A stretch of 12,452 bases of DNA from the IMG/VR virus record IMGVR_UViG_2713896784_000025; one strand, given 5' to 3'. Source of the DNA: a virus (Duplodnaviria > Heunggongvirae > Uroviricota > Caudoviricetes). Within the stretch, counting starts at the first letter, position 1, and every line of letters begins with the position of its first letter. The notes beneath the pieces are model-generated. The model saw only the letters and a list, made by a program, of their open reading frames with translations, did no database searches and had not been told where the DNA came from. The position numbers and the translations under genes are program-made. Shown here in pieces: positions 3,122-9,819 of this stretch.

Positions 3122-3171
3122 NNNNNNNNNNNNNNNNNNNNNNNNNNNNNNNNNNNNNNNNNNNNNNNNNN

Positions 3172-6145: not shown

Positions 6146-6571
6146 TTAATGCACAGCCAGAGTGTTTCCTGCCGGGCCACCACGATTCATCTGATCGAAC
6201 AGAACGATCGCTGATGCAACGAAATCATCAATATCTTTCACCAGCCGTTCCTTCGTCTCTACCAACTCCCGAAAATAAGCGGAACTGTGGCTGCGCATTC
6301 GGGCCACCAGCGGAGGCGGCATCGCTTTTTCGATCGCTGGTAACAACGCCTGAATTTTTTTAACCGCATCAGGAGTGTCTTTCTCCACCCAGCGGAAAAT
6401 TTTCTGAGTATTGCGAGCCATGGCTTCCGGATGGCTGTCGTCATACAGTTCCGGGAACGTCATTCCCAGCTCGAAATACGCTTTGGTAATTTTCGCAGCC
6501 GGTACTTTTTCGCCGTCCGGATGCGCCCAGGCATTCATCGCCATGCGGATGTGTTCATGCTTGATTTTCAT
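6146..6571 (-). CDS. YdaT-like protein (Rac prophage ydaT position), 141 aa
   Basis: ATG at 6571 with GGAG 8 nt upstream; its first 17 nt overlap the end of the Cro-like gene. Begins MKIKHEHI..., which matches my recollection of E. coli YdaT in start, length and position, but this is unverified. Confidence 0.65.
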   Translation of the reverse strand: MKIKHEHIRMAMNAWAHPDGEKVPAAKITKAYFELGMTFPELYDDSHPEAMARNTQKIFRWVEKDTPDAVKKIQALLPAIEKAMPPPLVARMRSHSSAYFRELVETKERLVKDIDDFVASAIVLFDQMNRGGPAGNTLAVH

Positions 6572-6827
6572 GAATCAACTCCGGCGCATTTGATGTGTTA
6601 ACCTTACATCCAACAGGTAAACCGTCGGTTGGGTTAGGATAAATATCTGGGCGGATTTCATGCGGGGTAACTTCCCACTTCATTAGTTGGCATAACGGAA
6701 TTACCTGCTTTGGGGGAACGCCAAAGCTAAACCATTGCCAAACAGTCTGTTGAGCGACCCCCATATAACGACCTATTTCAGCCTGAGTGTATTTCTGCCT
6801 AATTTTTTCGCGAGTGCTATCTAGCAT
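6555..6827 (-). CDS. Cro-like / YdaS-type HTH regulator, 90 aa
   Basis: ATG at 6827 with strong AGAGGAGGG upstream. HTH segment QAEIGRYMGVAQQTVWQW; transcribed divergently from the repressor gene. Confidence 0.8.
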   Translation of the reverse strand: MLDSTREKIRQKYTQAEIGRYMGVAQQTVWQWFSFGVPPKQVIPLCQLMKWEVTPHEIRPDIYPNPTDGLPVGCKVNTSNAPELIHENQA

Positions 6828-6860
6828 TTTGCCCTCCTCTAAAAACTATAAGCAAAGCCT

Positions 6861-6899
6861 ACAATAAAAAACTGTATGCAATCAACAGTTTTTTATTGT
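6861..6899. promoter_or_regulatory. Operator: perfect inverted repeat ACAATAAAAAACTGT-(9 nt)-ACAGTTTTTTATTGT in the divergent intergenic region (OR-like)
   Basis: Arms at 6861-6875 and 6885-6899 are exact reverse complements; they sit between the Cro-like start (6827) and the repressor start (6936). Confidence 0.6.
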
Positions 6900-6935
6900 G
6901 ATGCTTTTAACAGTATTTACCTGTAAAATTGAATA

Positions 6936-7337
6936 ATGATGAGCGCCCTAGAAGTATCTATGTACAGAATCAGCAAGCTTCTTCAGGAAACTGGATGGAG
7001 CCAGGCTGAGCTTGCCCGTAGAATTGGTGTGACACAACAAACTGTTCAACAATGGGTCAGCGGTAAGGCTACACCTAAAGCCTCAAGTTTGGATAAACTG
7101 GTTGAGGTTTCAGGGCATCCATTGCATTGGTTTTTATTGCCTCCTGAAGAGTGTGAGCAAATTTTCACCCCTGACACGATGAAAATTGGTCCTCGCCAAC
7201 GCGAACTGCTCCAAGCTTTTAGTGCGTTTCCTGAGGAAGACCAAGAAAAAATGCTTCAAGAAATCAAAGACAAGAAAAAATCAATGGAAGAAACCATTGC
7301 TAGGTGGCTGGCGGCACAAAAAAGCCGCCGGGCGTGA
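6936..7337 (+). CDS. Prophage repressor, short XRE-family HTH protein (DicA/RacR-like; possibly PaaR2-like), 133 aa
   Basis: HTH WSQAELARRIGVTQQTVQQWVSG; C-terminal tail (PRQRELLQAFSAFPEEDQEKMLQEIKDKK...) is laid out like DicA as I recall it; no S24 peptidase domain. No clear ribosome-binding site at 6936, so possibly leaderless; 6960 is an alternative ATG. Confidence 0.85.
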   Translation: MMSALEVSMYRISKLLQETGWSQAELARRIGVTQQTVQQWVSGKATPKASSLDKLVEVSGHPLHWFLLPPEECEQIFTPDTMKIGPRQRELLQAFSAFPEEDQEKMLQEIKDKKKSMEETIARWLAAQKSRRA

Positions 7338-7364
7338 CCACAGTACAAGAAGAGGAGTTATGCC

Positions 7365-7556
7365 ATGGGTACAGCCCTTTCTCCGATAGTTTCAGAATTC
7401 GAAACTACCGAACAAGAAAACAGTTACAACGAATGGTTGCGCACTAAAGTAACGTCAAGCCTTGCAGACACTCGCCCCGCAATTCCACATGACGAGGTAA
7501 TGGCTGAAATGGAAAATCTTATTGCTCAAATTGCTGTAACTAACAAGAGCGAGTAA
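7365..7556 (+). CDS. paaA2: Type II antitoxin partner of ParE (PaaA2-like), 63 aa
   Basis: GGAG ribosome-binding site; stop TAA overlaps the ATG of the downstream toxin (TAATG). Size and sequence (SEFETTEQENSYNEWLRTKVTSSLADTRPAIPHDEV) fit my recollection of PaaA2; symbol is tentative. Confidence 0.7.
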   Translation: MGTALSPIVSEFETTEQENSYNEWLRTKVTSSLADTRPAIPHDEVMAEMENLIAQIAVTNKSE

Positions 7557-7843
7557 TGTTACCCATTTTATGGCTACCGTCTGCTCGCGATGATTTGCGC
7601 CAGATCATAACTTACATCGCCAAGGAGAACCCACCGGCAGCACGTAGACTAAAAATACGCATTGAAACATCGGTATTACCTCTATCTGAGCATCCGTACT
7701 TATATCCACCAAGCGAACGGGTTTCTGGATTGAGAGAGATCGTGACCCACCCTAACTACATAATCCTGTACAGAGTAGCTGCTTCAAGCATTGAGATTGT
7801 AAGCGTGACACATTCTCGGCGACAATTTCCCTTCTCTATCTGA
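7556..7843 (+). CDS. parE: ParE/RelE-superfamily toxin (ParE2-like), 95 aa
   Basis: MLPILWLPSARDDLRQIITYIAKENPPAARRL...LSEHPYLYPPSERVSGLREIVTHPNYIILYRV: the characteristic ParE N-terminal helix and core. Translationally coupled to the antitoxin. Confidence 0.85.
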   Translation: MLPILWLPSARDDLRQIITYIAKENPPAARRLKIRIETSVLPLSEHPYLYPPSERVSGLREIVTHPNYIILYRVAASSIEIVSVTHSRRQFPFSI

Positions 7844-7893
7844 GTTGAACAATTTTCATACTCCCTCTTTCGAGGGATTTTTTTGCCCAAAAC

Positions 7894-7933
7894 AACAATT
7901 AAAAACTGTTGACACAAAAACAGTTTTTTATTG
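7894..7933 (+). promoter_or_regulatory. Second operator copy with embedded TTGACA (OL/pL-like)
   Basis: ACAATTAAAAACTGT (7894-7908, 14/15 identical to the OR left arm) and ACAGTTTTTTATTGT (7919-7933, identical to the OR right arm), 10-nt spacer. TTGACA at 7908-7913; the -10 element is ambiguous (TAGATT at 7933-7938). Confidence 0.5.
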
Positions 7934-8125
7934 TAGATTACATACACCAACCACCCACCCCGCCCCACAGAACGCCGGGCAATACTTCGAGTTACCAAGC
8001 AGTGGTCAGGGGGTAAGTAGCCAGCCCGAGGCGTATGAACATGACGGCAGGGTTCAACTTTAATAACTATGCAGCNNNNNNNNNNNNNNNNNNNNNNNNN
8101 NNNNNNNNNNNNNNNNNNNNNNNNN

Positions 8126-9367: not shown

Positions 9368-9404
9368 CGCTGCAACGCCCTCTGTTATCAATATTCTGGT
9401 GACA

Positions 9405-9451
9405 TTTGGCGGTATCAGTTTTACTCCGTAACTGCTCTGCCGCCCTTTTTT
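9405..9451 (+). terminator. Weak intrinsic-terminator-like element (plus strand)
   Basis: GGCGG ... CTGCCGCC with a long loop, followed by TTTTTT at 9446-9451. Confidence 0.25.
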
Positions 9452-9630: not shown

Positions 9631-9819
9631 ATGGAAAAGTTATCATGTAATGCCAGCACGTCTGAACTTCGTTTCGAAATTGGCGTTATCACTGGAGACA
9701 AAACATTTATTGAAGACGCCATTAAGCAGAGAAAACTCGAGCAGGACCTGTTAAATGAAGTATGCATTCCTTCAATGCTGGCTCGTCTGGACCTGCTGCA
9801 AAAAGGATATAAACAATGA
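9631..9819 (+). CDS. Hypothetical small protein, 62 aa
   Basis: ATG at 9631 with GAGGA upstream (MEKLSCNASTSELRFEIGVITGDK...); stop overlaps the next start (ATGA). Confidence 0.55.
   Translation: MEKLSCNASTSELRFEIGVITGDKTFIEDAIKQRKLEQDLLNEVCIPSMLARLDLLQKGYKQ

Follow-up and report, generated by a model that had tools for sequence, protein, structure and literature searches.

Gene content of the locus

The window, by which we mean the whole stretch of 12,452 nucleotides analyzed here, contains the immunity region belonging to a cryptic lambdoid prophage of E. coli O157:H7, apparently CP-933M/Sp4. The assignment to CP-933M is based on position (the region adjoins yccA and a gene of the ECs1072 family lies nearby) and on a statement in the literature rather than on a labelled record. 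CP-933M is the prophage reported to carry a paralogue of paaR2-paaA2-parE2. The elements are arranged in the order ydaT, ydaS (Cro-like), OR, paaR-paaA-parE, terminator, OL/PL and a ydfA..DicF-dicB operon. Genes and accessory elements are as follows:

6146-6571, minus strand: ydaT-like gene, 141 aa, CII analogue (Pfam YdaT_toxin, E 1e-9)
6555-6827, minus strand: ydaS-like gene, 90 aa, Cro analogue with the recognition helix AQQTVWQW (Pfam YdaS_toxin, E 8e-10)
6561-6578, unstranded: perfect YdaT box, TTGATTTTCATGAATCAA, where ydaS ends and ydaT begins (PRE-like region), an exact match to the published site
6936-7337, plus strand: gene for a paaR-type repressor, 133 aa (Pfam HTH_3 and Phage_CI_repr)
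7365-7556, plus strand: paaA antitoxin gene, 63 aa (PDB PaaA2, E 1e-20; Pfam PaaA2, PF21217, E 6e-19)
7556-7843, plus strand: parE toxin gene, 95 aa (Pfam ParE_toxin, PF05016, E 3e-17)
7862-7886, plus strand: predicted intrinsic terminator of the repressor-toxin/antitoxin (TA) operon, a hairpin (TCCCTCTTTCGAGGGA) followed by a T run
7940-8075, plus strand: 5' leader of the PL operon, conserved among heteroimmune prophages, its first 36 nt C-rich

The ydaT-like gene is annotated as a member of the YdaT family in O157 TR01, and its DNA is 88% identical to ydaT of the CP-933P type. At the sequence level, the locus offers both parts of a CII-type activation system, a YdaT family gene and a perfect box between the cro-like and cII-like genes, the published YdaT site being TTGATTN6AATCAA (PMC9986795). 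On the other side of the repressor gene, a PaaA-type antitoxin without DNA-binding domain is followed by a ParE toxin, as in the three-component PaaR-PaaA-ParE TA loci, and the paaA stop overlaps the parE start by one base. This 1-nt overlap, a 27-nt gap and a single terminator after parE suggest that paaR-paaA-parE form one operon. An equivalent hairpin with a T run is present directly upstream of OL in two related loci (L017 and L011). Downstream of OL, a DUF1391 gene, ydfB, DicF (76.9 bits) and dicB are found.

In the repressor, a linker connects an XRE/434-like HTH domain to a C-terminal helical hairpin (Pfam and a structure model, pLDDT 80). Among solved structures the HTH domain matches the 434 repressor best (E 3e-5), while a fold search with the model returned only generic XRE-HTH matches. 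Neither an S24 peptidase domain nor a site for RecA-stimulated autocleavage is found in the 133 residues, for which Pfam reports HTH families only and the model HTH plus hairpin. In the absence of the S24 domain, the protein ranks as a functional analogue of CI outside the cleavable CI/LexA family. A homologue search with the 133-aa repressor did not return PaaR2, which was reached via the TA genes; the C-terminal 98 aa of the two are nevertheless 42% identical (E 1e-20), whereas their DNA-binding domains belong to different types. Identity with DicA amounts to 28% over 111 aa (E 6e-12). The recognition helix of the repressor reads TQQTVQQW, and 15 of 28 residues across the HTH are identical in YdaS. 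As judged from the shared recognition-helix motif, the Cro-like YdaS very probably binds the same sites as the repressor.

Proposed operators and promoters

It had originally been predicted that two copies of one palindromic operator bracket the repressor-toxin/antitoxin block, and the genes for the 133-aa HTH protein, the 63-aa antitoxin and the 95-aa ParE indeed lie between them. The first copy is the perfect palindrome foreseen at 6861-6899, with 15-nt arms at 6861-6875 (ACAATAAAAAACTGT) and 6885-6899 (ACAGTTTTTTATTGT) that are exact reverse complements on either side of a 9-nt spacer (ATGCAATCA). The second copy had been placed at 7894-7933 and actually occupies 7895-7934, one base further to the right; the description of its arms was accurate, the one at 7920-7934 being identical and the one at 7895-7909 (ACAATtAAAAACTGT) carrying one change. 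Its spacer has 10 nt, not 9, and a different sequence (TGACACAAAA). The TTGACA that had been noticed to overlap the second copy lies at 7909-7914 and shares the last T of the left arm.

With up to three mismatches, the 15-mer matches four times in the 12.4-kb window, exactly at the four arms; shuffled sequences contain 0.73 matches on average and two of 200 reach four. The longest inverted repeat with a short loop had 12-nt arms in 60 shuffles as compared to 15 in the observed sequence. The degenerate motif ACARTN5AYTGT (at most one mismatch) occurs six times where 1.5 matches are expected, a number reached in none of 200 shuffles, and five of the six fall into the two intergenic regions. One of these is OR3 at 6910-6924, a site absent from the original prediction. 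On sequence grounds, the working unit is a 15-bp pseudo-palindrome, ACA[AG]T-N5-A[CT]TGT, and not the 39-nt palindrome, each unit presumably accommodating one repressor dimer, such that each of the predicted palindromic operators resolves into a pair of adjacent 15-bp operators. The genes ydaS (minus strand) and paaR (plus strand) are 108 bp apart, and three 15-bp sites spaced by 24 and 25 bp lie in this gap. OL comprises two recognizable sites as opposed to the three reported for lambda and CP-933P, and 24-25 bp to either side of the OL1/OL2 pair no third site is recognizable. Operators and predicted promoter elements are arranged as follows:

6856-6861, minus strand: predicted PR -10, TAGGCT
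6861-6875, unstranded: OR1 (ACAATAAAAAACTGT), between the PR -35 and -10, at -75 from the repressor ATG in seven loci
6880-6885, minus strand: predicted PR -35, TTGATT
6885-6899, unstranded: OR2 (ACAGTTTTTTATTGT), at -51 in seven loci
6910-6924, unstranded: OR3 (ACAGTATTTACCTGT), weaker, reaching over the PRM spacer into the first base of the -10, at -26
6924-6929, plus strand: predicted PRM -10, TAAAAT, 6 nt before the ATG, a geometry common to nine relatives
7895-7909, unstranded: OL2 (ACAATTAAAAACTGT), distal to the PL -10, a motif match
7909-7914, plus strand: predicted PL -35, TTGACA (TTGACn at the same place in six of six PL modules)
7920-7934, unstranded: OL1 (ACAGTTTTTTATTGT), a motif match, with the sequence of OR1 if both are read in the direction of their promoters
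7934-7939, plus strand: predicted PL -10, TAGATT, with a predicted start at about 7944-7947

A consensus promoter scan made no call at PL, PR or PRM. All three were placed by conservation across loci, and the proposed -10 elements match only three or four of the six consensus positions. TTGAyn follows the distal operator in six of seven PR modules and in all six PL modules, and in every PR and PL module compared, the final base of the promoter-proximal operator is where TAnnnT begins. At PL, the -10 position is occupied by TAGATT, TAGCAT or TAATCT across the six modules, with a spacer of 19 bp at the window locus versus 18 bp in the relatives. In terms of sequence, the predicted PR and PL are one design, a -35 TTGAyn and a -10 TAGnnT overlapping two sites. 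The predicted PRM -10 lies only 6 nt from the ATG, so that the repressor mRNA would be leaderless; the nine relatives with the same spacing of -10 hexamer and ATG include paaR2 of the CP-933P type. The center of OR2 is located 44 bp upstream of the repressor ATG, that is the predicted PRM start, and OR3 retains the same defective half-site in six lineages. Rfam yielded no match in the OR, OL or leader regions.

A scan of genome contigs provided five useful loci, four others being unrelated HTH proteins from Clostridia, and further relatives were added via a search for contigs encoding homologues. Eight loci from six genera (the window, E. coli A8, Salmonella, Raoultella, Pluralibacter, Morganella, a metagenomic contig and Arsenophonus) share the helix QQT[VI]QQW at repressor identities of 44-98%. 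In seven of them, the offsets of the motif from the repressor ATG are -75 (-74), -51 and -26, with two mismatches each in OR3 of Raoultella and Morganella; Arsenophonus has one OR match and the downstream pair. In each of the eight, the motif recurs downstream of the repressor, past variable cargo. In six, it forms a pair, 23-25 bp apart and 112 to 851 nt past the repressor stop, and the metagenomic contig stops after the first downstream site. All 26 sites measure 15 bp and have ACA and TGT without exception (ACA in 52 of 52 half-sites), while the central 5 bp and the spacers between sites vary. All 25 matches to the strict motif in 54 kb reside inside OR or OL.

Furthermore, the operators co-vary with the repressor. 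Helices ending in QRW are found together with ACACA-N5-yGTGT operators (L002, L022), and those ending in QKW with ACAAC..GTTGT (L003, L004) or ACTTTnAAAGT (L015, L018), that is a change of the third glutamine from Q to R or from Q to K accompanies changes at operator positions 4 and 5. The altered motif is likewise repeated downstream of the repressor operon, except in L022. The operator statistics omit this locus (rearranged, no OL found) as well as L005 (different helix, no Cro-like neighbor).

The proposed immunity switch and alternative readings

We propose, with a probability of roughly 0.85, that the palindromes constitute the OR and OL operator sets of a lambda-type bistable immunity switch in an O157:H7 cryptic prophage. 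Divergent genes for a repressor and a Cro-like protein, separated by a gap with several operators, and the repetition of the operator at a PL facing away are the features of a lambdoid switch. The originally suggested lambda layout, in which one repressor would control both divergent promoters, gains support from gene order and gene families, from the co-varying operators and from the CP-933P paralogue. The site sequences themselves, their degree of conservation, the way they co-vary with the repressor and the homologies are demonstrated, and we infer protein binding, activity of the promoters, the start points of transcription, cooperativity and possible looping between OR and OL.

The 133-aa PaaR-type repressor with its 434-like HTH would bind OR1/OR2 and OL1/OL2 and block PR, leading leftward into ydaS-ydaT and the replication genes, as well as PL, leading rightward into the ydfA-ydfB..DicF-dicB-exonuclease operon. 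At both promoters the distal site runs at its end into the predicted -35 TTGAyn, and the final base of the proximal site is also the first base of the predicted -10 TAGnnT. OR2 would abut a weak PRM -35 and OR3 overlap the PRM -10 region, a placement that may allow activation of PRM at low and autorepression at high repressor levels. PRM would give rise to a probably leaderless paaR-paaA-parE mRNA ending at the terminator at 7862-7886, which would insulate PL from PRM. The Cro-like YdaS, whose recognition helix is nearly identical, would compete for the sites of PaaR, YdaT with its box at 6561-6578 would take the role of CII, and the PaaA/ParE module may be viewed as cargo in the slot held by rexAB in lambda.

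It could be argued that the operators serve only YdaS or another factor and that the 133-aa protein controls nothing but its own TA operon, through another sequence, since YdaS possesses the same QQTV recognition motif and the exact sequences bound by PaaR2 and by YdaS have not been separated for CP-933P (PMC8630535). However, the operator type follows the repressor helix across genera even where the third glutamine position of the Cro protein is Q, L, G or H, the paralogue PaaR2 footprints 78 bp of OR and represses PR and PL, and no other repeated motif is present in OR; we regard this explanation as improbable. Mere recurrence of AT-rich sequence has a practically negligible chance of being correct: the sequences are indeed AT-rich and of low complexity, and two of 200 shuffles yield four loose matches, but the exact 15-mers occur only in the two regulatory gaps, no shuffle attains the count of the degenerate motif and the positions of the sites are conserved in six genera.

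Two further explanations assign a function to the repeats as such. The 39-40-nt palindrome might itself act as a cruciform or hairpin (supercoiling sensor, terminator or RNA stem), and in fact both copies form strong DNA hairpins relative to shuffled sequences (z -6.3 and -3.6) and the second, located behind the TA operon, includes a T run. Yet the same two sites in Raoultella fold no better than shuffles (z -0.1 at OR), conservation resides in the ACA/TGT at the ends of the 15-mers without compensatory changes in the arms, OR3 stands without a partner arm and a separate GC-rich terminator is already available at 7862-7886. Because the long hairpin is not conserved, we reject this reading as highly improbable. 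Alternatively, the copies might be terminal inverted repeats, or scars of recombination, that a mobile repressor-TA cassette left on insertion: they stand in opposite orientation (17 nt, 100% complementary), and the content of the 1-kb block between them varies from prophage to prophage. On the other hand, the cargo-free relatives Morganella and Arsenophonus keep both operator sets, the sites remain tied to promoter elements while the cargo varies, and neither a transposase nor a target-site duplication is present. Homology with heteroimmune prophages runs on through the TA genes, so that the boundaries of the cassette do not coincide with the repeats. An origin as transposon ends is scarcely credible and was rejected on account of the sites in cargo-free relatives and the homology through the TA genes.

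Read as immunity operators, the sites supply the second, previously uncharacterized PaaR-PaaA-ParE prophage switch of O157:H7 with operator sequences, with positions for its predicted promoters and with a start that is likely leaderless. In the searchable literature we found no binding, reporter or transcription-start data on the window locus, and the literature searched contained no account of the operator sequence or of Sp4 operators. The PL operon contains DicF and DicB, regulators related to cell division and virulence, and the switch therefore probably decides when this EHEC copy is expressed. The co-varying set of repressors, Cro proteins and operators might serve in the design of orthogonal switches.

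Three more speculative ideas are, taken jointly, rather doubtful. The helix residue equivalent to Gln33 of 434 (Q, R or K) may set operator positions 4 and 5, with the Cro partner perhaps changing at the same helix position, and the specificity code of the DicA/PaaR-type family may be simple and transferable. By analogy with PaaR2, the repressor may octamerize, and the octamer may bridge OR1/OR2 and OL1/OL2 in a loop of about 1 kb enclosing the gyrase-poison TA module. Finally, EHEC has four DicF/DicB copies, and the heteroimmune switch may govern the on/off heterogeneity of one of them independently.

Comparison with known systems

As in lambda, divergent PR and PRM surround three operators about 24 bp apart and a second operator set is located at PL; the predicted co-transcription of accessory genes with the repressor, the leaderless repressor mRNA and the counterparts of Cro and CII extend this likeness. 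The distance between OR and OL is about 1.03 kb in the window and about 2.4 kb in lambda. Furthermore, sequence homology to CI does not extend past the generic HTH, the window repressor lacks the S24 peptidase/RecA-cleavage domain, the sites measure 15 bp in contrast to 17 bp in lambda, and OL has two rather than three of them. The lambda side of this comparison is established knowledge supplemented by PMC8630535.

The recognition helix of 434 repressor, TQQSIEQ, aligns with TQQTVQQ of the window repressor, so that the three base-reading glutamines are kept. The half-sites of both systems start with ACA(A/G), and the center is AT-rich and not conserved. Identity is confined to the HTH (about 30%) and the C-terminal domain differs. 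The 434 operator, ACAA-N6-TTGT, has 14 bp, whereas all 26 window-type sites have 15 bp, and docking inferred from 434 is therefore only approximate. The short repressors of Gifsy-1, Gifsy-2 and mEp237, about 28-32% identical to that of the window over most of their length, also lack an autocleavage domain but differ in their operators. Gifsy repressors are inactivated by antirepressors.

In Qin, DicA is a homologous short repressor without cleavage domain that represses dicBp through OL-like operators and is inactivated by the antirepressor Rem (PMC10448788). The window protein is of the DicA type, with homology over the HTH and the C-terminal helical part and with its gene upstream of a ydfA..dicF-dicB operon. 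The operators of dicBp flank TTGACC and overlap TAATCT, the same PL design, and dicBp drives the homologous ydfA-ydfB..DicF-dicB operon. Qin differs in that no TA cargo lies between dicA and dicBp, the operator sequence is another one, the C-rich leader segment is lacking and the Cro partner is DicC and not of the YdaS type.

The closest counterpart is CP-933P (Sp12), for which the layout of OR, PRM, PR and PL has been established by EMSA, DNase I footprinting, 5' RACE and gfp reporters (Jurenas et al. 2021, PMC8630535). PaaR2 and YdaS both footprint OR there and both repress PRM933P, PR933P and PL933P; the PaaR2 footprint is a 78-bp stretch of OR spanning both promoters, OL1-3 are located past the TA genes, paaR2 is leaderless according to 5' RACE and N-terminal sequencing, and PaaR2 octamerizes (PMC8630535). 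The window shares with CP-933P the order ydaT, ydaS, OR, repressor, PaaA, ParE, OL/PL, DUF1391 gene and dicB, homologous antitoxin, toxin, YdaT and C-terminal part of the repressor (42%, 98 aa), the leaderless geometry of -10, 6 nt and ATG, the YdaT box and the repetition of the operator motif at a promoter past the TA genes. In contrast, the N-terminal DNA-binding domain of the repressor and the whole YdaS protein are unrelated, the operators are of the ACARTN5AYTGT type instead of GTTTAGTAA-type repeats, and OR and OL contain three and two sites, respectively, as against four inverted repeats plus three operators in OR and three in OL of CP-933P. Relative to CP-933P the locus is a mosaic: homology drops across ydaS, OR and the N-terminal domain of the repressor and returns in the C-terminal part of that protein, in the TA genes and in the PL leader, while the OL operators differ. 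With only the C-terminal part in common between PaaR and PaaR2, the window prophage would be heteroimmune to CP-933P despite a common repressor oligomerization part, common TA genes and a common PL operon. The layout has been demonstrated experimentally for this sister prophage of the same strain; the feature described here is thus real but ordinary and leaves the accepted picture of lambdoid immunity regions unchanged.

Putative operator units at OR and OL

The original prediction saw one palindromic operator in two copies bracketing the repressor gene and the toxin/antitoxin (TA) genes. Both copies are present, but the units are 15-bp sites, three at OR and two at OL. Every arm of the palindrome is a 15-bp pseudo-palindrome, ACA[AG]T-N5-A[CT]TGT, and the comparative data show this site to be the unit under conservation. 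The putative operators are:

6861-6875: OR1, left arm of the first copy, ACAATAAAAAACTGT
6885-6899: OR2, right arm of the first copy, ACAGTTTTTTATTGT
6910-6924: OR3, a fifth site, found among the matches to ACARTN5AYTGT
7895-7909: OL2, left arm of the second copy, ACAATtAAAAACTGT, with one change
7920-7934: OL1, right arm of the second copy, the identical arm

The arms ACAATAAAAAACTGT and ACAGTTTTTTATTGT are perfect reverse complements separated by a 9-nt spacer, and the first palindrome (6861-6899) is thus perfect, as claimed. One identical arm and one with a single change were also correctly described for the second copy, but its position has to be moved by one base, from 7894-7933 to 7895-7934; the last T of its left arm is indeed shared with TTGACA at 7909-7914. 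Its 10-nt spacer is unlike that of the first copy in sequence. This inter-operator spacer (7910-7919 in the O157 OL) measures 8 or 9 nt in the prophage of E. coli A8, a close relation (L017, 3048-3056), and in the other relatives. With up to three mismatches, the 15-mer occurs four times in the window, at the four arms only (shuffled controls: mean 0.73, four reached in 2/200), while ACARTN5AYTGT with up to one mismatch matches six times (1.5 expected, six reached in 0/200 shuffles). The short-loop inverted repeat of 15 nt compares with a maximum of 12 nt among 60 shuffles.

Homologues of the 133-aa repressor PaaR (6936-7337, + strand) were gathered at 44-98% identity, and loci from E. coli A8, Salmonella, Raoultella, Pluralibacter, Morganella, Arsenophonus and metagenomic contigs were compared. 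The repressors of eight loci contain the recognition helix QQT[VI]QQW, and in seven of these the repressor ATG is preceded by the motif at -75 (-74 in one), -51 and -26; OR3 of Raoultella and Morganella has two mismatches, and Arsenophonus has a single OR match. Six of the eight loci have two sites downstream of the repressor, spaced by 23-25 bp and lying 112 to 851 nt past the stop codon; the metagenomic contig of this set stops after the first downstream site. Among 26 non-redundant sites there is no variation in ACA and TGT; positions 4/12 are R/Y, positions 5/11 are almost always T/A, and central bases and inter-site spacers vary freely. All strict motif matches in 54 kb of loci (25/25) fall in OR or OL. 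The defective half-site ACAGG of OR3 (6910-6924, read along PR) is common to six lineages, with equivalents in loci L011, L013, L020, L021 and L023. An intentionally weaker OR3-like site would have this appearance, and the shared half-site suggests that low affinity may have been conserved for autoregulation or Cro preference.

Predicted promoters and the PL leader

Further features that bear on the regulatory layout are:

6561-6578: perfect YdaT box TTGATTTTCATGAATCAA, overlapping the start of ydaT where ydaS ends
7862-7886: GC-rich terminator between the repressor-TA operon and PL, with counterparts in relatives
9394-9445: DicF sRNA gene downstream of OL/PL (Rfam, 76.9 bits)
9631-9819: dicB, downstream of OL/PL

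Read leftward, OR1-OR2 has in all loci the same build as OL2-OL1 read rightward, namely distal site, TGAyn, proximal site and AGnnT. We infer that the -35 element of PR (into ydaS-ydaT) and PL is TTGAyn, whose first T doubles as the terminal T of the distal site, and that the -10 element is TAGATT, TAGGCT, TAGTCT or TAATCT, whose first T is likewise the terminal T of the proximal site. The predicted spacer amounts to 18 bp in all modules but the OL of the window, where it is 19 bp because of one extra A. The dicBp promoter of Qin, experimentally defined and repressed by DicA (PMC10448788), matches this design with TTGACC ... TAATCT inside operator repeats. Transcription from PL is predicted to start around 7944-7947, within the originally proposed interval 7935-7950. 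As DicF and dicB lie in the operon past OL/PL, the switch probably controls one EHEC copy of DicF/DicB.

The candidate -10 element of PRM, TAAAAT at 6924-6929, ends exactly 6 nt upstream of the repressor ATG at 6936, and a Shine-Dalgarno sequence is absent there. The same geometry is found in nine relatives including the CP-933P-type paaR2, which is leaderless according to 5' RACE, N-terminal sequencing and mass spectrometry (PMC8630535). The repressor gene of the window likewise looks leaderless. Counted from its predicted start, the OR sites are centred at -68, -44 and -19, close to the arrangement at lambda PRM. YdaT of CP-933P footprints a site of the form TTGATTN6AATCAA, likewise at the end of ydaS (PMC9986795), and by analogy the box at 6561-6578 suggests a YdaT-activated PRE-like promoter here too.

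The PL leader (7940-8075) starts very rich in C and poor in G (20 C and 3 G in 36 nt). It is kept as a whole among the heteroimmune prophages L011, L015, L019 and L020 and mostly missing from Qin. It may serve in Rho utilisation or antitermination, and it matched no Rfam family. Two mechanical open reading frames crossing terminator, OL and leader (7845-8063, + strand, 72 aa; 7756-7998, - strand, 80 aa) carry no annotation in RefSeq genomes and are unlikely to be genes.

Repressor helix, operator type and alternative explanations

The helix-turn-helix of PaaR aligns to that of the phage 434 repressor (E 3e-5), with TQQSIEQ of 434 opposite TQQTVQQ of PaaR, so that the three glutamines by which the 434 repressor reads ACAA are kept. 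In the predicted structure (mean pLDDT 80) a disordered linker connects an XRE domain of five helices to a C-terminal helical hairpin; fold-search matches are generic XRE/434-type domains. The helix of the Cro-like YdaS, AQQTVWQW, nearly equals that of PaaR. Where the third glutamine is replaced by R (Rahnella L002, metagenomic L022), the operators read ACACA-N5-yGTGT; where it is replaced by K, they read ACAAC..GTTGT (Klebsiella spallanzanii L003, Pectobacterium L004) or ACTTTnAAAGT (E. coli L015, L018). The Cro partners in these loci carry R or K at the matching helix position. Leaving aside L022, which is rearranged, each locus has the altered motif at OR and again beyond the repressor operon. 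Operator type therefore follows the linked DNA-binding proteins, both locations changing together. A comparison of repressor residues 33-40 (window 7034-7057) with those of L002, L003, L004, L015, L018 and L022 shows operator positions 4 and 5 co-varying with the residue that corresponds to 434 Gln33: ACA[AG]T accompanies Q, ACACA accompanies R, and ACAAC or ACTTT accompanies K.

It is unlikely that the sites are bound by YdaS only: the Cro helix can vary while operator type still goes with the repressor helix, and the precedent of PaaR2, the CP-933P repressor, argues otherwise. A structural role of the long palindrome is contradicted by the lack of conservation of the long hairpin, the Raoultella pair folding no better than shuffled sequence. 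Derivation of the sites from a mobile cassette is also contradicted, since cargo-free relatives retain both operator sets and homology runs on through the TA genes. Chance recurrence of the repeats is excluded by the shuffle controls and the confinement of strict motif matches to OR and OL. Motif conservation at OR and OL, co-variation and the precedent of CP-933P and Qin support the proposed lambda OR...cI-rex...OL/pL layout, which is refined in three points: the units are 15 bp long, OR has three sites and OL two, and a Cro partner is predicted to use the same sites.

Cargo, prophage identity and comparison with known systems

Cargo slot, from the repressor gene to OL

PaaA/ParE: this window, L015, L017, L018, L019, L022
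112-120 aa protein, function unassigned: Salmonella
133-aa protein and DUF2767: Raoultella
152-aa protein: Pluralibacter
Empty: Morganella, Arsenophonus
Coordinates: L011 3903-4484; L013 3903-4752; L020 3900-4619; L021 3897-4007; L006 3427-3465

The slot behaves like the lambda rexAB 'moron' position. Since its content differs among relatives, the TA module is cargo at this position, as has been proposed before for CP-933P (PMC8630535).

The 1.57 kb around the operators match E. coli O157:H7 chromosomes at 100% identity, and 509 out of 5426 complete E. coli genomes contain them with coverage of at least 80%. In strain TR01 the segment resides in a lambdoid prophage adjoining yccA, in the order replication genes, ECs1072-family gene, YdaT, YdaS-type transcriptional regulator, HTH protein, RelB-family antitoxin, RelE/ParE toxin, DUF1391 (ydfA-like), ydfB, dicB, DUF1482, exonuclease and integrase. 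Pfam confirms YdaT, YdaS, HTH_3/Phage_CI_repr, PaaA2 and ParE in the window, and its 63-aa protein matches the solved PaaA2 antitoxin (E 1e-20). A paaR2-paaA2-parE2 homologue has been placed on CP-933M, in the strain that also carries CP-933P (PMC8630535), and the prophage fits CP-933M by position and gene content. Apart from three 50-N runs (722-771, 3122-3171 and 8076-8125, standing for 280, 99 and 172 real chromosome bases), the window is collinear with the O157 chromosome; the first run masks the hokD region, and the last covers the PL operon's first gene, the ydfA-like DUF1391 gene, for most of its length including the start, together with its ribosome-binding site.

The CP-933P-type locus L019, reached via its TA genes, encodes PaaR2 with the published N-terminus MQKKE and a PaaA2 that agrees with the solved chain over the portion displayed. 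PaaR aligns with PaaR2 over the C-terminal 98 residues only (42% identity), whereas the N-terminal domains are unrelated and no alignment was obtained between the two YdaS proteins. DNA homology extends through ydaT, is lost from ydaS through OR into the 5' part of the repressor gene, and is regained in the 3' part of that gene, the TA genes and the PL leader; within this otherwise alignable stretch the OL operators differ. Judged by these alignments, the window and CP-933P are classical heteroimmune lambdoid immunity regions with a common oligomerisation module. In CP-933P, OR is bound by PaaR2 and YdaS, each of which represses PRM933P, PR933P and PL933P; PL933P, with its three OL sites, follows the TA genes, PRM is activated by low PaaR2, and PaaR2 forms octamers (PMC8630535). 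PaaR is also homologous to DicA of Qin (28% identity, E 6e-12), which is relieved by the antirepressor Rem (PMC10448788), and more distantly to the Gifsy and mEp237 repressors; all of these lack a cleavage domain. No published description of the window's operators was found in the literature searched, the 2010 primary paper lying outside its reach. The architecture as such is already established for the sister locus CP-933P and for Qin; new are only the operator sequence of this member, its promoter geometry, the predicted heteroimmunity and a tidy co-variation series.
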